Origin: Deferribacterales bacterium
Lineage (GTDB): Bacteria > Chrysiogenota > Deferribacteres > Deferribacterales > Geovibrionaceae
Length of the DNA stretch: 12,640 nucleotides
Direction: 5' to 3'
Assembly (NCBI GenBank): GCA_050253335.1
Contig: JBFWJG010000056.1
Coordinates: 1 to 12,640 of the forward strand
The notes under the pieces were generated by a model. The model worked only from the letters and a program-made list of their open reading frames with translations, was not told where the DNA came from and did no database searches. A program made the translations under genes and the position numbers. Positions 1,243-9,201 of this stretch are shown in pieces; position 1 is the stretch's first letter, and the number at the start of each line of letters is the position of its first letter.

Positions 1243-3081
1243 ATGAATCTTTTATCCATTGAGAAACTTAAAAAGAACTACGGCGACAGGACAATATTCG
1301 AGAATGTAACCTTCGGGCTGAACGAGGGCGATAAAGCCGCCATAATAGGCATAAACGGCAGCGGCAAATCAACTCTGCTTAAAATTATCGCAGGGCTTGA
1401 AGAGGCTGACGGCGGAAATATTGCCATAAATAAATCGTGTGTCATAAATTATTTATCGCAGTTACCTGATGTATTGCCTCATGTCAGTGTGATCGACTAT
1501 ATCTTCAAGTCCGACACGCCGACAATGCGCCTTATAAAGCGCTATGAGCAGCTCTGCCACACAGACAGCCCTGAACTGCACAAGCTCATGGCAGAACTGG
1601 ACGCGAAAAACGCATGGGGCTATGAGTACAGCGTAAAATCTGTTCTGGGCGAGCTTGGCATCCATGACTACAACATGAAAATGGGCGAGCTCTCCGGCGG
1701 CATGGCGAAAAAGGTCTCACTCGCTCAGGCGCTCATTGACGAAGGCAGTCTGCTCATACTGGACGAGCCGACCAACCATCTTGACATAGACACTGTGGAG
1801 TGGCTCCAGAACCATCTGGAAACCACAAAAAAGGCTGTTCTGCTTGTAACCCACGACAGATACTTCCTTGATAATGTCTGTAACGTTATTTTTGAGATAG
1901 ACGAAGGCAGATTCACCCGATATGACGGCAACTACTCATTTTATCTGGAAAAGAAAGCAGAAGCCGAAGCCCACGAACAGCGCAGGCAGGACAGGCTGGC
2001 CAACATTCTCCGCAATGAGCTTGTATGGCTGCGCAGAAGTCCCAAAGCACGCACCACCAAGCAGAAGGCAAGGATAGACCGTGCGGCGGTTATTCAGGAC
2101 AGCATTGTCCGCAAAACGGAAAAGGAGCTTGAACTCAAGACCCTCGGACGCAGGCTCGGCGGCAAAATACTTGACCTTAAAGATGTTTCCAAAGCATACG
2201 GGGATAAGGTTCTGTTCCGTGATTTCAGCTACTCCTTCAAAAAAGGGGAAAAACTGGGGATCGCAGGGGCAAACGGAAGCGGGAAATCAACCTTCCTGCG
2301 CATTCTCACCGGAGAGGAAGCACCGGACAGCGGAACTGTGGACATTGGAGTAAACACATTTTTCGGAGTGTTTGATCAGCACAGCAAAGAGCTTGACCCT
2401 GAGATGAAAGTTATTCAATATATTGAGGAAACAGCGAAAAATATCAAGCTGGACAACGGACTTACCCTGTCCGCCACACTGATGCTTGAGCGCTTCCTTT
2501 TCCCGAAGGACAGCCACTACCGCCCGATCAGCAAGCTTTCCGGCGGTGAAAAACGCAGACTGCATCTTGTAAACGAGCTTATCAAGAATCCTAACTTCAT
2601 CATTCTGGATGAACCGACGAACGACCTTGATATACAGACCCTGAGCGTGCTTGAGGATTTCCTTGAGGATTTCGGCGGCTGTGCCGTTGTGGTTTCCCAT
2701 GACAGATACTTCATGGACAGAGTCTGCGACACCATGTTTATCTTCAAGGGTGACGGCGTGTTTGAGCACTTCCCCGGCAGTTATTCCAACTGGCTGGAAT
2801 CCCGAACCAAGGTAAAAGATAAACCCGCGGAAAAGAAGGAAGCCCCAAAACCTGTGCAGGAGAAGAAGCGTAAGCTCTCATACGCAGAAAAAAAAGAATA
2901 TGAAGGCATAGAGGCCGAAATAAGCCGTCTTGAGGGCGAACTGGCGGACATGACGGCGGAGCTTGAAAAAGGCGGAAGCGATTACTCCCGCCTTGCGGAA
3001 CTTCAGCAGAAGATAGATGAAACGGAAACAGAGCTCCTCGAAAAAATGGAACGCTGGGAGTATTTAAGCGGGTTGGAATAA
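1243..3081 (+). CDS. ABC-F family ribosome-associated ATPase, Uup/YfmR-like
   Basis: Two ABC domains (GINGSGKS/LSGG/LDEPTNHLD/THDRYFLD and GANGSGKS/LSGGE/LDEPTNDLD/SHDRYFMD) and no TM helices. Linker ELVWLRRSPKARTTKQKAR and a C-terminal coiled coil ending ERWEYL are typical of Uup-like proteins. Confidence 0.93.
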   Translation: MNLLSIEKLKKNYGDRTIFENVTFGLNEGDKAAIIGINGSGKSTLLKIIAGLEEADGGNIAINKSCVINYLSQLPDVLPHVSVIDYIFKSDTPTMRLIKRYEQLCHTDSPELHKLMAELDAKNAWGYEYSVKSVLGELGIHDYNMKMGELSGGMAKKVSLAQALIDEGSLLILDEPTNHLDIDTVEWLQNHLETTKKAVLLVTHDRYFLDNVCNVIFEIDEGRFTRYDGNYSFYLEKKAEAEAHEQRRQDRLANILRNELVWLRRSPKARTTKQKARIDRAAVIQDSIVRKTEKELELKTLGRRLGGKILDLKDVSKAYGDKVLFRDFSYSFKKGEKLGIAGANGSGKSTFLRILTGEEAPDSGTVDIGVNTFFGVFDQHSKELDPEMKVIQYIEETAKNIKLDNGLTLSATLMLERFLFPKDSHYRPISKLSGGEKRRLHLVNELIKNPNFIILDEPTNDLDIQTLSVLEDFLEDFGGCAVVVSHDRYFMDRVCDTMFIFKGDGVFEHFPGSYSNWLESRTKVKDKPAEKKEAPKPVQEKKRKLSYAEKKEYEGIEAEISRLEGELADMTAELEKGGSDYSRLAELQQKIDETETELLEKMERWEYLSGLE

Positions 3082-3093
3082 CCCGCCTTATTT
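3065..3093. terminator. Hairpin between the convergent ABC-F genes, overlapping the first gene's stop codon
   Basis: GCGGGTT (3068-3074) / AACCCGC (3080-3086) with a 5-nt loop, followed by CTTATTT on +. Confidence 0.5.
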
Positions 3094-4954
3094 AATCATC
3101 GCCGTCATCATCCCCAAGTTCCTTGAGTTTGCTTTCGTATTTTGCCGATTCAAACTCAAAGTCCTCTGTGGCTGTCTCAAGCTGAGTGAAAAGCTTCTCT
3201 ATTTCCGCTTCCCATTCCGTAAGCTCCTTTGAGAGCGAGCTTATTTTAGCGGTGTCCCCGTTTTCGGAAGCCGCCACGAGAAGGCTGTTTATATCCGCCA
3301 CTCTTTTTTCGGCGGTTTCTATGGCAGTTTCAGTGTCACGGACTTTCTTTTCAAGGGGAGCAACCACCCTGCTTTTCTCGCTAAGGAGATCGGAGCGGCG
3401 TTTTCTCAGCTCCTTTTTTGTCAGCCTGCCCTGAGAAGTTGTCTTTTTTTTGGGCTTTTCAAACTGCTCATCCTCGTCCCAGCCCTCTTTTTCAAGGAAT
3501 TCGGCGTATGTGCCTTCAAAAACGCTTATGCTGTTGTTTTTGAATACAATAAGCCTGTCCGCCAGAGCGTGGAGAAACATCTCGTTGTGGGTGATGAGTA
3601 GCAGAGTTCCCGGGAATTCGTCCAGAGCCTCAAGGAGCGAATCGCAGGACTGCATGTCAAGGTGGTTCGTAGGTTCATCCAGCATAAGGAAGTTCAGCGG
3701 CTGTGCAAGGAGCTTGCCGAGCATCACCCTGCTTTTCTCCCCGCCGGAGAGAACGCCTATCTTTTTAAGCGCCGAATCCCCTTCAAACATCATTATTCCG
3801 GCGATATTTCTGGCTCTCTGCCTGTCCACATCCGGCGCGGTCTGGAGGAGTTCCTCCTCTATTGTGCGCCTGTCGTCCAGAGTTTTTATATTTGTCTGCT
3901 CATAAAAACCTTTTTCTATGCCTGGCCCGTAGTAAACCTCACCAGCGTCAGGCTTCATCTCACCCGCCAGAAGCTTGAGGAGGGTTGTTTTCCCCTTGCC
4001 GTTTTTACCGATAATGCAGACACGTTCGCCAGTAGTGATATTTATGCTGAAATCATTGATCAGCGGTTCGTTTTTATCATAGCCGAAGGTTATTCCCTTC
4101 GCGTTCAGGCCTGTTTTGCCTTCATAGGGCTTATAGCGGAATCCGAAGTCCAGATCTTTTATATCCTCAAGCTTCGCCCTTGAACCCATCTTCTCAAGCA
4201 TCTTCACCCTTGACTGAGCGCGGCTCGCCAGAGATGCCTTAGATTTGAAGCGTGTGATGAACGCCTCAACCTCTTTGCGTTTCTGCTCTTCGTTGAGGCG
4301 GGTTTTCTCGTAGATCTCCTCTTCCATGGCTATCTGCTCATAGAGCTTGCCCGTGTCGCCCTCTATTTTGCGGATTTTTTTGCGGTGGATAGCAACTGTG
4401 TGCGTGACAACGGCGTCCATGAAGCTTCTGTCGTGGGTGATCAGCATCAGCTCCCCTTTCCAGCTCCGCAGGAAGCTTTCAAGCCAGCGGACGGAAGTGA
4501 TGTCCAGATAGTTCGTAGGTTCATCCAGAAGGAGCATGTTCGGTTCGGAAACCAGAACCTTAGCCAGATTCAGGCGTATCTGATAACCGCCTGAAAACTC
4601 GGACGGACTGCGGTACATGTCTTCCTCCGTGAACCCCAGTCCGAAAAGAATTTTCTCCACTTTCCAGTTCTGCCCCTCGTCCTCTTCACGAAGCCCTTTG
4701 CAACCTTCCTCAATAACAGTGTTTTCCGTGAAGTTAAGATGCTGCTGCAAGTGCCCGATTGTGTAGCGTTTGGGAAAGCTCACCTGACCGGAATCAGGCG
4801 TTTCCTCTCCGATCAGCATACGGAAAACAGTTGTTTTTCCGTGCCCGTTTCTGCCGACCAGCCCTGCTCTCTCGCCTTTATTTAAACGGAATGAGGCATC
4901 CTCAAGGAGAACCTGTCCGCCGTAGCTTTTACTTATGTTTTCAACGTTTACCAT
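3092..4954 (-). CDS. ABC-F family ribosome-associated ATPase, YheS/YdiF/YbiT-like
   Basis: Two ABC domains (GRNGHGKT/FSGG/LDEPTNYLD and GKNGKGKT/LSGGE/LDEPTNHLD), linker AFITRFKSKASLASRAQSRVKML, C-terminal coiled coil. GGAG lies 8 nt upstream of the ATG. Confidence 0.93.
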   Translation of the reverse strand: MVNVENISKSYGGQVLLEDASFRLNKGERAGLVGRNGHGKTTVFRMLIGEETPDSGQVSFPKRYTIGHLQQHLNFTENTVIEEGCKGLREEDEGQNWKVEKILFGLGFTEEDMYRSPSEFSGGYQIRLNLAKVLVSEPNMLLLDEPTNYLDITSVRWLESFLRSWKGELMLITHDRSFMDAVVTHTVAIHRKKIRKIEGDTGKLYEQIAMEEEIYEKTRLNEEQKRKEVEAFITRFKSKASLASRAQSRVKMLEKMGSRAKLEDIKDLDFGFRYKPYEGKTGLNAKGITFGYDKNEPLINDFSINITTGERVCIIGKNGKGKTTLLKLLAGEMKPDAGEVYYGPGIEKGFYEQTNIKTLDDRRTIEEELLQTAPDVDRQRARNIAGIMMFEGDSALKKIGVLSGGEKSRVMLGKLLAQPLNFLMLDEPTNHLDMQSCDSLLEALDEFPGTLLLITHNEMFLHALADRLIVFKNNSISVFEGTYAEFLEKEGWDEDEQFEKPKKKTTSQGRLTKKELRKRRSDLLSEKSRVVAPLEKKVRDTETAIETAEKRVADINSLLVAASENGDTAKISSLSKELTEWEAEIEKLFTQLETATEDFEFESAKYESKLKELGDDDGDD

Positions 4955-5752: not shown

Positions 5753-5830
5753 CACGGGGCGGGATGTCCGCTAAAATCCCTGAGCGAAAAACGCATGGGA
5801 ATCAGGGCGCCCGCTCCGGTGTGTTTATTT
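5753..5830 (+). other. GC-rich branched stem-loop after mobB followed by a T-rich tail (terminator-like or REP-like)
   Basis: Outer stem CGGGGCGGG (5755-5763) / CCCGCTCCG (5810-5818), inner stem CCCTGA (5778-5783) / TCAGGG (5802-5807), small GCG-A5-CGC hairpin, then TGTGTTTATTT. Confidence 0.55.
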
Positions 5831-5858
5831 AAGAATGCGTCGTAATTTCCCGCCGTGC

Positions 5859-5886
5859 TTGACACCTGCTGTCTTTGATATAAAAT
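5859..5886 (+). promoter_or_regulatory. Putative sigma70 promoter of the nitroreductase gene
   Basis: TTGACA (5859-5864), 16-bp spacer, TAAAAT (5881-5886). GGGG SD-like sequence precedes ATG 5910. Confidence 0.65.
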
Positions 5887-5909
5887 TGATTTTCAGACGG
5901 GGGTAGAAA

Positions 5910-6488
5910 ATGGAAAGAATCAAGGAACTTATGAAGATAAACCGTTCTTACCGCAGGTTTGACAATTCCAAAGAGCTTGATATGGGCTTTCTGGAAGATC
6001 TCATATACTCGGCGCGCATGTCCCAAAGCGCCGCCAATCTCCAGCCTCTCCGATATATTACTGTCACTGACAGGGAAAAAGTCGCAGAAGTTTATTCGAC
6101 ACTCGGCTGGGCAGGTTATCTTAAAGACTGGGACGGACCGGAACCCGAGGAACGCCCCGTCGCTTACATAGTTGTTCTCAGCACGAAGGATTCTTCATAT
6201 GCTCAGGTGGATGCAGGGCTTGCCATGCAGAATATGTGCCTCACGGCTATTGCCGCAGGTGTGGGTTCATGCATACTCGGCAACATCAAAAAAGAGCGTC
6301 TGGCGCAGATTCTGGAGCTTGAGGACGATCTGACGATACTGTATGTGGTAGCTCTCGGCTATCCGGTTGAGAATGTTCAGGTTATCAGCATCAGAGAAGC
6401 GCCCGACCACAAATATTTCAGAGACGCTGAAGGGAATCATTATGTCCCTAAGAGATGCATAGACGACCTGCTGATTAAGGAACTGTAG
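5910..6488 (+). CDS. Nitroreductase family flavoprotein
   Basis: NRSYRRF FMN-binding start, ARMSQSAANLQPLRY, DAGLAMQNMCLTA...GVGSCILG, VVALGYP, C-terminal HYVPKR. Confidence 0.92.
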   Translation: MERIKELMKINRSYRRFDNSKELDMGFLEDLIYSARMSQSAANLQPLRYITVTDREKVAEVYSTLGWAGYLKDWDGPEPEERPVAYIVVLSTKDSSYAQVDAGLAMQNMCLTAIAAGVGSCILGNIKKERLAQILELEDDLTILYVVALGYPVENVQVISIREAPDHKYFRDAEGNHYVPKRCIDDLLIKEL

Positions 6489-6503
6489 CCTGCAAATCAT
6501 CCC

Positions 6504-6541
6504 GCGCCCTCCTTCCCTGAAAAGGAGGGTGTTTTGTCTTT
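6504..6541 (+). terminator. Intrinsic terminator after the nitroreductase gene
   Basis: GCGCCCTCCTT (6504-6514) / AAGGAGGGTGT (6522-6532) with two G-U pairs on +, then TTTGTCTTT. Confidence 0.8.
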
Positions 6542-6566
6542 ATCTCAAAGAAATTTCTCTGACGCT

Positions 6567-7019
6567 TTACAGTTCCTTGTCCATATATACATGAGTGTCT
6601 TTCTTCCAGCCGTTGCGCTCATAAAACTTTCTTCCTGCATGGTTTTTTTCCAGAACAAGCAGATGTATGCGGATATGCCCGCTTTTCCGGCAGCACTCCT
6701 CAACGGCGGCAAGGAGCTTCGCCCCCACCCCTGAGCTTCGCAGGCTTCCGCTGACTACCATATTTTCGACATAAGCCACCTTGGCGCCTTCATCCACGGA
6801 AACAAGCGACTGAGCCTGACACATGCCGACTATTTTTCCGCCCTGCTCCGCAATGAAAATACAGTAACGCTCAGGGTCGCTCATCAGCATTTCAAACCCT
6901 TTTCTCATTGCCGCTTCGTCCACTGTTTCGTTTTCGAGGGCGAGAAGCTCGCTCAAAACCTCTATCATGCCGCTTATATCGCTCTTTTCCGCAGGGCGGA
7001 GGGTAATGGTGTCCGTCAT
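6567..7019 (-). CDS. GNAT family N-acetyltransferase
   Basis: ITLRPA start, FIAEQGGKIVG, acetyl-CoA motif A variant VVSGSLRSSGVGAKLL, motif B NHAGRKFYERNGW. GGAG SD upstream. Confidence 0.9.
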   Translation of the reverse strand: MTDTITLRPAEKSDISGMIEVLSELLALENETVDEAAMRKGFEMLMSDPERYCIFIAEQGGKIVGMCQAQSLVSVDEGAKVAYVENMVVSGSLRSSGVGAKLLAAVEECCRKSGHIRIHLLVLEKNHAGRKFYERNGWKKDTHVYMDKEL

Positions 7020-7170
7020 GTGTGCTCCGTTATAAATAGTGATAAAATCTCTATAATATTTTTGATCCTTAAAAGCAAATACTCTTTATAAAGCGGCTCT
7101 GAAACGTGTTAACAGAGGGATTTATTAAACTTGTCAAAAAACTATTGCGAAATAGATAAGGGCTTATATC

Positions 7171-7428
7171 TTATGACATATAGCAGATGCACGGAACGCA
7201 CGGGAAGCGACATTCCCCTGAGTTGTTCGGAACTCTAATGAAGAACAAGAGCCGCAGACGCATCGCTGGAGACAAATACGGAGGTGTTACCCGTTGAGTC
7301 ACTTTAAAATCCCCTGCCCGGCAAGGTAAAAAACGCAATGTGCCGTTAGTCGGGCAGGGTTTCCAAAATTATGAATATGTTATGACATAGAAAAGGCACG
7401 GAGACATGAACCGTGCCTTTATTATTTG
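7171..7428 (+). ncRNA. Candidate free-standing structured RNA of unknown family
   Basis: Lies in a gap with no long ORF. 11-bp closing stem 7171-7181 / 7375-7385, small hairpins at 7188-7235, long hairpin 7312-7359, terminator 7392-7428. The non-Watson-Crick pairs in the closing stem and long hairpin are G-U on +, which favours that strand. No family recognised. Confidence 0.55.
7392..7428 (+). terminator. Intrinsic terminator in mid-intergenic position, not adjacent to any long CDS end
   Basis: Perfect 10-bp stem AAAGGCACGG (7392-7401) / CCGTGCCTTT (7411-7420) with a 9-nt loop, followed by ATTATTTG. The A-run on the left makes it potentially bidirectional. Confidence 0.75.
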
Positions 7429-7526
7429 TGAAATTATTATTCAGTTTTATGATTTCTGAACACTTCAAGCGCTTTTGCGATGTTCATACAGGTTTCCGCT
7501 AATATCCCGCATTTGCGGCATTCACC

Positions 7527-7596
7527 TCATTCTGAACGAAGTGAAGAATCTCTTATTTGTTATGATTTTGAGACTCTTCGCTTTGCTCAGAGTGAC
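7527..7596. repeat. Palindromic REP/MITE-like element (GTCATTCTGAGC...GAAGAATC type)
   Basis: 26-bp imperfect inverted repeat TCATTCTGAACGAAGTGAAGAATCTC (7527-7552) / GAGACTCTTCGCTTTGCTCAGAGTGA (7570-7595), 21/26 matched, AT-rich 17-nt spacer. Resembles the CGTC/TGTC-tagged palindromic repeats of many bacteria (recalled, not searched). Confidence 0.7.
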
Positions 7597-7608
7597 TGTT
7601 TAATCAAC

Positions 7609-7635
7609 AAAAAAGCGGAGCCCGAAAGCTCCGCT
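7609..7635 (-). terminator. Intrinsic terminator of the PhoH-family gene
   Basis: Minus strand reads AGCGGAGCT-TTCG-GGCTCCGC-TTTTTT (UUCG loop), 13 nt after the stop codon. Confidence 0.9.
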
Positions 7636-7648
7636 CAGTAAACTTGCC

Positions 7649-9064
7649 TTACAGCACCCTCGCCGCTTCGGTGGCCAGCCTGCTTCTTTCCCCTTTGTCG
7701 AGGAAAACTGTTGTGCAGTGGCGGAATCGCGCCTGAGTGAACTTCTCGGAAGCGTTGATCAGCCCGTTGTCCCATTCGTTGAGGTATGGGTTGTCTATCT
7801 GCTTCAAATCGCCCGTGAAAACGATTTTGGTGTTGTGCCCTGCCCTTGTGATGATTGTTTTCATCTCATGAGGACTGAGGTTCTGCGCCTCGTCTATGAC
7901 GACGTAGGTATCGATAAGTGTCCTGCCCCTTATGTAGGTCAGTGCTTCGATTTCAAGTATGTTTGAGGACTTGAGGTAGTCTATTGTTATGTTGTTCATC
8001 TGGCTTTTGTAGTAGACCCCGTCTTTGCCGTCTCTTATTTCCTTGTTGCTGTTGCCGATGATGAAATCCAGATTATCGTAAATCGGCTTGAGCCATGGGT
8101 CGAGCTTTTCGGAGATACTGCCGGGCAGATAGCCCAGATCGCGCCCCATAGGGATAGGAGAGCGGGTAACAAGCATCTTTTTATATGTGCCTTCGTTAAG
8201 CACGGAATACATTCCGGCGCAGAGAGCAAGGAGCGTTTTGCCTGTTCCGGCTATCCCTATGGCGAAAACAACGTCAATATCAGGGTCGAGGAGTGCTTCC
8301 ATGAGGTATTTCTGTTTCCTGTTGGCGGGGTTTATGCCGAAGATGTTTTCGTATTCCGTAACCCTTTTGAAGCCCTTGACATCGCCCTCGTCCTCGAAAT
8401 ATTTCACAAGAACGCCCTTCTTCTCGTCCACTTCGCTTTTCATCACGAAATATTCGTTAATTCTGGGTCTGAATTCCTCCATGTTTATGCCGTAGATATA
8501 ATCCGGCATGGGGAGCTCACTCTCCTGATACATCATGTTTATGTATGAGTCCGGCACGTAAAGAGTGTCGTCCTTGCTCTCTGTGAAGCTTCCCATGCGC
8601 TCGTGGTAGTAGTCCTCCGCTTTTATGCCGAGGGCGTTTGCCTTAACACGCAGGTTCACATCTTTGGAGATTATTATTGTTTCGTTCTTTGACTCGTTCT
8701 GGAGCTTTTTTGCTATTCCCAGTATTAGGTTATCGTTTCTCCTGCCGGAAAATTCCTCAGGAACGCTCTCCTTTGACTCCCTGTCATGGAACGAGATGAA
8801 AAGTGTCGCCCCGCTCTCCATTTTCACGCCTTTCAGGAGATCTCCGCCAGTTCTGTAGTCCTCAATTTTGCGGATGAATTCACGGGCGTTGTAGCCGTTG
8901 AGATCCACGCCTTTTTTAAATGAATCCAGCTCTTCCAGAACGATTGCGGGGATATAGATGTTGTTGTCATCGAAGGTTTCCAGAGCTTTCGGCGAGTACA
9001 GAATCACGTTTGTGTCTATTACGAAGTTCTTGATCTTTGAAGATTTTTTTACCGCTTTAGGCAT
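7649..9064 (-). CDS. PhoH family ATPase with N-terminal PIN domain (PhoH2/YlaK type)
   Basis: PIN motifs FVIDTNV, VLEELD, NDNLIL, SKDVNLR. PhoH motifs GIAGTGKT, GYLPG, YIRGRTL, DEAQN, TRAG, GDLKQID, ERSRLA. Start placed at ATG 9064 because GGAG is 7 nt upstream. Confidence 0.93.
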   Translation of the reverse strand: MPKAVKKSSKIKNFVIDTNVILYSPKALETFDDNNIYIPAIVLEELDSFKKGVDLNGYNAREFIRKIEDYRTGGDLLKGVKMESGATLFISFHDRESKESVPEEFSGRRNDNLILGIAKKLQNESKNETIIISKDVNLRVKANALGIKAEDYYHERMGSFTESKDDTLYVPDSYINMMYQESELPMPDYIYGINMEEFRPRINEYFVMKSEVDEKKGVLVKYFEDEGDVKGFKRVTEYENIFGINPANRKQKYLMEALLDPDIDVVFAIGIAGTGKTLLALCAGMYSVLNEGTYKKMLVTRSPIPMGRDLGYLPGSISEKLDPWLKPIYDNLDFIIGNSNKEIRDGKDGVYYKSQMNNITIDYLKSSNILEIEALTYIRGRTLIDTYVVIDEAQNLSPHEMKTIITRAGHNTKIVFTGDLKQIDNPYLNEWDNGLINASEKFTQARFRHCTTVFLDKGERSRLATEAARVL

Positions 9065-9201
9065 TAACAACTCCAACCTTTTCTATGTTTTAATTTTCAA
9101 CCGAGTAACCTTTAAAGTCAAGGACAGTTTTGGGTTAAACTTTGTCCGCACAAAAATTTAACGAAGTTGACACGTCCTTTTTTTAATGCTTAAAAACAGT
9201 G

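Follow-up and report, generated by a model that had tools for sequence, protein, structure and literature searches.

Genomic Setting of the Locus

The window analysed here is a stretch of 12,640 nucleotides (contig JBFWJG010000056.1, assembly GCA_050253335.1) from a Deferribacterales genome that is 99.94% complete and is labelled G000 in what follows. Two genes on its minus strand, a divergent one encoding a GNAT acetyltransferase (6567-7019) and a convergent one encoding a PIN-PhoH protein (7649-9076), had been named as such in a preliminary description of the sequence, and both identities are confirmed by Pfam. The gap between them contains, on the plus strand, a promoter, a folded segment and two hairpins that belong to a putative RNA gene, which overlaps neither neighbour and is single-copy in G000. 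Taking into account that the adjacent GNAT protein shares 93% identity with a protein named Geovibrio ferrireducens by a source, the genus (g1) is presumed to be Geovibrio and is called so here. The comparison set comprised four Geovibrio genomes, including G000, G001 (the most distant one) and G002, together with G004, which represents the sister genus.

The GNAT gene is the neighbour of the RNA in all five genomes carrying it. PIN-PhoH is found near the RNA in Geovibrio only, the convergent gene in G004 being a LysM gene instead. The terminator attributed earlier to PhoH itself was located by the consensus scan at 7613-7636 on the minus strand. It had also been stated that the gap holds a comparatively GC-rich segment, which is true with respect to the promoter zone (47.5% in 7200-7399 vs 34.5%) but not with respect to the genes.

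Other elements were observed around the locus. In G002, an insertion of some 700 bases separates the second terminator from PhoH and seems to contain an open frame (L031), and in G004 both the RNA and PhoH are immediately followed by tandem hairpin repeats (L079:800-1480, L034). A long imperfect palindrome at 7526-7596 (z -5.9), REP-like and with about 43 similar copies in the genome, presumably resembles the CGTC-tagged REPs; it is absent downstream of PhoH in G001. The accessible part of PMC3733652 does not mention this lineage in the context of REPs. Elsewhere in the window, two convergent ABC-F-like ATPase genes (1243-3081 and 3092-4954) were recognised from their translations.

Promoter and Conservation of the RNA Body

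The sigma70-type promoter on the plus strand (7145-7172) was found exactly where it had first been placed, with a -35 hexamer TTGCGA (7145-7150), a spacer of 16 bp and a -10 hexamer TATCTT (7167-7172), and the start of transcription is estimated at 7179-7182. The hexamers are conserved: TTGCG and TAT(C/A)TT are preserved in the five homologues while the spacer between them diverges, and the promoter of G004 (TTGCG, 16 bp, TATATT) has the same layout as in Geovibrio. An A-tract just upstream of the -35 hexamer (7132-7144, plus strand), possibly UP-element-like, is invariant in the four Geovibrio genomes and is also present in the sister genus. In the consensus scan the promoter scored 8 matches out of 12, below the cut-off of 9, and was not listed; both plus-strand hairpins were omitted as well, with a loop or tail outside the scan rules. 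Since the scan lists none of these elements, it is conservation that supports them. Readings of the promoter as sigma54 or sigma28 were rejected by eye on spacing.

The RNA body (7179-7370) is 92-98% identical in the three congeneric genomes, and around it the identity within Geovibrio is 64-100% in the upstream zones and 37-60% in the downstream zone. Between G000 and G001, 172 of 187 body positions are identical; for the same pair, GNAT and PhoH are 54% and 56% identical, respectively, at third codon positions. The body is thus under strong purifying selection acting at the RNA level. At its 5' end, 7179-7236, G000 and G001 agree in 56 of 58 positions, and this part includes an invariant core, CGGAACGCACGGG(A)AGCGA (7192-7210, plus strand), identical in the sister genus (a 13-nt block plus AGCGA in G004), also matched by a metatranscriptome contig, and largely paired in predicted folds. 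Further on, an A-rich linker with (ARN)4 periodicity (7241-7252, plus strand) constitutes a candidate site for the distal face of Hfq, and ARN runs of 3-5 triplets occupy this position in 5/5 homologues. From 7276 to 7328 the two genomes are identical at 53 of 53 positions. Here lies a conserved segment (7276-7311, plus strand) that carries a Shine-Dalgarno-like GGAGGTG (7280-7286) and a TTG from which a frame of 11 codons (7294-7329) can be read; in G004 only the GGAGGTG of this segment is retained.

This last site raises the question of whether the RNA could be an mRNA, or a dual-function RNA, from which a tiny peptide is read. The Shine-Dalgarno sequence is strong, the TTG found 7 nt after it opens the 11-codon frame in 4/4 Geovibrio genomes, the stop codon changes from TAA to TGA in G001, and in G004 a 13-codon frame runs through the hairpin arm in an identical register. 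With ~200-230 nt and a Shine-Dalgarno sequence followed by a short frame, the gene would be reminiscent of SgrS or SR1, from which it differs in that its frame, opened by a TTG, has only 11 codons and is unconserved outside Geovibrio. G004 offers only ATT or ACG as starts and encodes a different peptide outside the stem, the frame shows no synonymous change in a comparison where 44-46% of third positions differ, and in the ten genes out of 1313 that carry GGAGGTG the motif is followed after 4-5 nt by ATG or GTG, where here a TTG follows after 7 nt. A coding role is, on this balance, improbable.

Predicted Structure and 3' Ends

The long hairpin announced at 7312-7359 (plus strand) is present there, with a z of -4.5 and none of 200 shuffles folding as well. 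It encloses a 2x4 internal loop of conserved sequence, and its 14 pairs hold in the four aligned sequences (14/14) with two compensatory changes (C-G to U-A) and two one-sided ones. Its substitution score was reached by 20 of 500 shuffles, and all the compensatory change comes from one sequence, there being none among the four Geovibrio genomes. A K-turn is defined by tandem G-A and A-G pairs after a bulge; this motif was considered for the internal loop and rejected by eye from the alignment, a U being found where a G is required. Directly 3' of the hairpin there is a U-tract in G004 and only three U in Geovibrio, and it is as an intrinsic terminator that the hairpin would function in the sister genus.

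The separate terminator proposed at 7392-7428 (plus strand) is also borne out, with a stem formed by 7392-7401 and 7411-7420, a tail reaching 7428 and a z of -5.9. It is exclusive to Geovibrio, where its stem is invariant (20/20), only one of the nine loop bases being retained in G001. It is probably bidirectional: on the minus strand, the 7392-7420 hairpin has a z of -7.1 and in G001 is found 77 nt beyond the end of the PhoH frame, so that in this genome it probably ends PhoH transcription as well. It is likely to be the 3' end of the RNA in Geovibrio, and two RNA-library contigs end at 7411 and 7422. The conserved unit, of ~185 nt, closes with the 7312-7359 hairpin, Geovibrio adding the second terminator.

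As for the 5' domain (7181-7268, plus strand), pair probabilities predict a bulged closing stem (7181-7190/7260-7268; 0.68-0.97), an inner CGG/CCG helix and the hairpin GGGAA/TTCCC (7202-7217; 0.89), and the bulged base of the closing stem, 7185, is the one that varies. The closing stems of G004 are analogous, yet not alignable with those of Geovibrio. Of the three short hairpins initially described here, GGGAA/TTCCC stands, and TGC/GCA and GAGTT/AACTC are unsupported: both are absent from the helices predicted in G000 with a pair probability >0.15, and GAGTT/AACTC is without counterpart in the sister genus.

On either strand, the region as a whole has a more stable predicted fold than its shuffles (z -3.5 on plus, -3.1 on minus). 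The value of -3.5 reflects the signal supplied by the two 3' hairpins, since the 5' domain alone, with a z of -1.05, is no better than shuffles. Taking into account that both strands fold alike (-76.6 vs -75.4 kcal/mol for plus and minus), folding gives no orientation to the gene. The wobble pairs, previously taken as an argument for the plus strand, do fit it as G-U, and so does the pattern of compensatory changes.

Distribution and the Homologue of the Sister Genus

A BLAST check in 61 genomes, of the kind first suggested for this element, found the RNA at length in the four Geovibrio genomes only. A covariance model made from these four sequences gave one further match in 68 genomes, that of G004 (E 5.3e-5), which shares 119 identities over 186/190 nt and sits at the same site, divergent from the orthologous GNAT gene. 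The similarity of the body to G004 has a local score of 40, against a maximum of 30 in 1000 dinucleotide shuffles, and the blocks common to both genera are the invariant core, GGAGGTG and, in the long hairpin, both arms together with the internal loop. Five of the 68 phylum genomes searched, some of them incomplete, thus contain the RNA.

Other searches delimit this distribution. The 5' pattern, allowing three mismatches, was found in 4/68 genomes, all of them Geovibrio. Among eight non-Geovibrio or weak loci inspected with model R1, G004 was the sole addition, and model R2 gave 32 weak places in 39 genomes, 16 of which were inspected, none with the conserved blocks. No locus of the 20 tested for the 3' pattern had both motif and hairpin, and the G004 sequence used as query gave one chance match, in coding sequence. 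The matches listed for the syntenic positions at PhoH, at nitroreductase and at 22 other GNAT loci included no RNA. Exact pattern scans gave one match in genome contigs, of the G001 type, one real match out of seven in metagenomes, one chance match in each of two scans of viral contigs, and none in plasmids and phages.

Compared with other non-coding sequences, the intergenic similarity between G000 and G004 ranks 24th among 80 orthologous upstream regions (a ranking based on 2.0 of ~3.0 Mb of G004) and lies above the 99th percentile of unrelated pairs; in an intergenic BLAST ranking of the two genomes, the RNA locus was absent among the matches listed. Among the non-coding sites best conserved with G004 were a SAM riboswitch-like leader, a tRNA and an intergenic stretch of 83 nt that separates divergent genes (G000:C9, ~27650-27730), is about 90% identical in G004 and is likely to be a regulator binding site.

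RNA-Library Contigs and Probable Transcription of the Gene

Three metatranscriptomes from two studies contain a small share of 6500-7900. Two of their contigs lie wholly inside the RNA gene, one from run X3 (7241-7411, depth 53.5) and one from run X2 (7246-7422, depth 2.4), and a third, from run X1 (7198-7436, depth 19.9), continues into unlike sequence. Within 5800-9200, PhoH is represented in runs X1 and X3 by contigs of depth 2-4.6, and no contigs were found for GNAT and nitroreductase, which in the case of GNAT is not proof of silence. Taking into account that strand, ends and true level are not given by these contigs and that DNA can be present, they are regarded as supportive only.

Run X1 also contains a 320-nt contig of depth 128 that matches 7188-7217 (with three differences) and 7342-7362; according to the match tables, the two cross-genus blocks would be separated in it by ~246 nt, vs 124 here, their order being kept. 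Since the 5' pattern with three mismatches hit only Geovibrio, this contig is read as a hint that some organism beyond the 68 genomes carries a longer homologue.

It is very probable that this is a real, stand-alone small RNA gene. Purifying selection, the cross-genus homologue, the promoter and the compensatory changes support the original proposal of an unannotated and independently transcribed plus-strand RNA, as do the RNA-library contigs on the gene and the lack of a match in Rfam. Transcription would proceed on the plus strand from ~7180; in the sister genus it would end at the 7312-7359 hairpin, in Geovibrio only at ~7425. The product, probably expressed, would be an RNA of ~190-250 bases belonging to an uncatalogued family of two genera of anaerobic bacteria, known in kind, and new and narrow as a family.

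The opposite view is that there is no functional RNA here, and that the region controls the divergent GNAT gene and supplies terminators for convergent transcription. The equal folding of both strands, the bidirectional second hairpin, strand being unproven by the contigs, and a cross-genus similarity that is unexceptional among upstream regions would all agree with it. Against this, conservation is lower beside GNAT and peaks at a distance of 160-350 nt from its start, the conserved promoter faces away from that gene, the G-U and compensatory patterns fit the plus strand, and the contigs cover the RNA stretch and not GNAT. A mere control region is for these reasons very improbable.

Comparison with Known RNA Families

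As had been anticipated, the gene cannot be assigned to a catalogued family: no Rfam 15 match overlaps 7100-7450 up to E 5, the G004 homologue has none up to E 10, and ARAGORN gave no match in the window. With 6S, tmRNA, SRP and RNase P RNAs it has in common that it is structured, apparently abundant and provided with its own promoter. However, 6S RNA, tmRNA and SRP RNA are each encoded elsewhere in G000. A replacement of RNase P RNA was considered, prompted by the lack of an RF00010 match in G000, and rejected, RNase P RNA being present in G001-G004. It was not found in the G000 assembly, though the search recovered it from each of the 15 other members of the family; rnpA occurs in 5/5 of the genomes tested and PF08745 in 0/5. 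Since G001-G004 have this RNA, a gap in the G000 assembly is the likely cause. Thus, the earlier view that it is not recognisable as tmRNA, RNase P RNA or SRP RNA is upheld. Nor is it a riboswitch or leader, because the downstream genes are convergent in G000 and G004 and no sense-strand gene follows in either.

Searches of the literature retrieved nothing on small RNAs of Geovibrio or on metatranscriptome small RNAs of the group. Three GC-IGR screens (PMC6429828, PMC8632094, PMC11109978) do not name Deferribacter, Denitrovibrio or Geovibrio in the accessible main text, and their supplements could list the RNA.

Possible Modes of Action

Most characterised orphan small RNAs in Hfq-bearing bacteria act by pairing, a narrow distribution is usual among them, and the Hfq-dependent ones of class II carry ARN motifs. 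The RNA described here resembles this last type in having a stand-alone gene, a U-tailed intrinsic terminator, an ARN run, short invariant blocks, a narrow distribution and an Hfq encoded in the same genome; it differs in the lack of an Rfam match, in an invariant block that is G-rich and predicted to be paired, and in that no target was found. An Hfq-associated, trans-acting regulator is tentatively proposed as its most likely mechanism, a preference that rests largely on the prior for orphan small RNAs in Hfq-bearing bacteria. The 3' U-tail and the ARN linker would load Hfq, and the purine-rich invariant segments (7192-7210 and 7276-7311) would act as recognition surfaces, pairing with pyrimidine-rich, anti-Shine-Dalgarno-like stretches of target RNAs. 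As a result, an inhibited mRNA leader could be opened, or another small RNA soaked up.

G000 encodes two Hfq proteins, a miaA-linked one and a two-domain one of 167 aa (L167:1459-1962, in G000:C2) followed by a lone receiver-domain gene. The latter is 99-100% identical across Geovibrio and full-length in 34/68 genomes; it was not found in families f5, f7, f9 and f10, scores far below the cut-off of the 176-position NCBIfam Hfq model, and nothing on tandem Hfq was found in the literature. The distribution of the RNA does not follow that of this protein, which is far more widespread (34/68 vs 5/68 genomes).

A screen for mRNA targets with five segments and 1054 orthologue pairs, carried out on two genomes with crude gene calls and 2.0 of ~3.0 Mb of G004, placed 1-2 pairs in the top 3% of both genomes, vs 0-7 for shuffled seeds, and none of the seven inspected among the best 14-mer complements in G000 lies at a translation start. 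Further features count against this mechanism: the conserved internal loop of the 3' hairpin is superfluous for a plain terminator, the compensatory changes come from one sequence, the invariant core is largely paired in predicted folds, unlike a classic seed, the cross-genus similarity reaches only rank 24 of 80, and the two-domain Hfq is much more widespread than the RNA. The limits of the RNA-library contigs noted above weigh on the same side.

The absence of a pairing target in this screen would be in accordance with the main rival reading, in which an RNA of a new type would act as a structured, folded particle in association with a protein or ligand partner, built on an invariant 5' junction and an invariant 3' internal loop with a length-variable middle. 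It is the two blocks in common with G004 that the 320-nt contig matches, and the internal loop is conserved even though Geovibrio has lost most of the U-tail of the hairpin. Nevertheless, the 5' domain does not surpass shuffles and its closing stems cannot be aligned between genera, covariation does not extend outside the 3' hairpin, the RNA occurs in only 5/68 genomes, and the long homologue is a matter of contig matches; such a particle is considered rather unlikely.

Sequestration of CsrA, in the manner of CsrB or RsmZ, has also been weighed. The RNA is similar to CsrB/CsrC and RsmX/Y/Z in size, terminator, apparent abundance, variable length and the possession of a few GGA motifs, three GGA positions survive in both genera, and csrA is present in G000. 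An alternative CGC-loop-GCG hairpin would resemble the GCGC-AAGGAA-GCGC site and the Shine-Dalgarno-overlapping GGA of flagellin leaders, but it costs ~4 kcal/mol. Unlike in those sponges, which Rfam does not match here, GGA is neither enriched (6 vs 5.0 expected in G000; 3 vs 3.9 in G004) nor placed in loops. The RNA of G000 has only three A(N)GGA motifs, the second terminator containing one, compared with 8-11 per 190 nt in many intergenic regions. Most of the GGAs are paired, with a mean unpaired probability of 0.0-0.63 across the sites of the five homologues, and the accessible text of PMC4005645 indicates that GGA pairing is what lowers CsrA affinity most. Moreover, fliW adjoins csrA in G000, making this a FliW-type CsrA system; in the parts available of two papers, lineages with FliW, Deferribacteres included, are proposed to use a protein antagonist (PMC4682653), and CsrA-FliW is called ancestral (PMC13443453). 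A sponge of this type is quite unlikely.

A broader proposal, unlikely as a whole, is that the RNA represents a new class of structured RNAs, abundant, variable in length (~185-310 nt) and marked by two invariant cores, which would have members outside the 68 genomes and act as folded decoys. Its target might be either the anti-Shine-Dalgarno of the 30S subunit, through the startless GGAGGUG, or FliW-type CsrA, through mimicry of flagellin leaders. Antagonism of FliW-type CsrA or a decoy for ribosomes would, if true, extend known regulation, and an ordinary pairing small RNA, the mechanism preferred here, would be of local interest. In a lineage that carries two Hfq and CsrA and for whose genus literature searches found no small RNA, a conserved, apparently abundant RNA provides a starting point both for studying RNA regulation in Deferribacterota and for building a new Rfam family.

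Regarding the flagellin leaders themselves, contig G000:C10 contains two long flagellin-family ORFs, and both leaders have an AAGGAA hairpin loop and a Shine-Dalgarno-overlapping GGA, typical CsrA sites.
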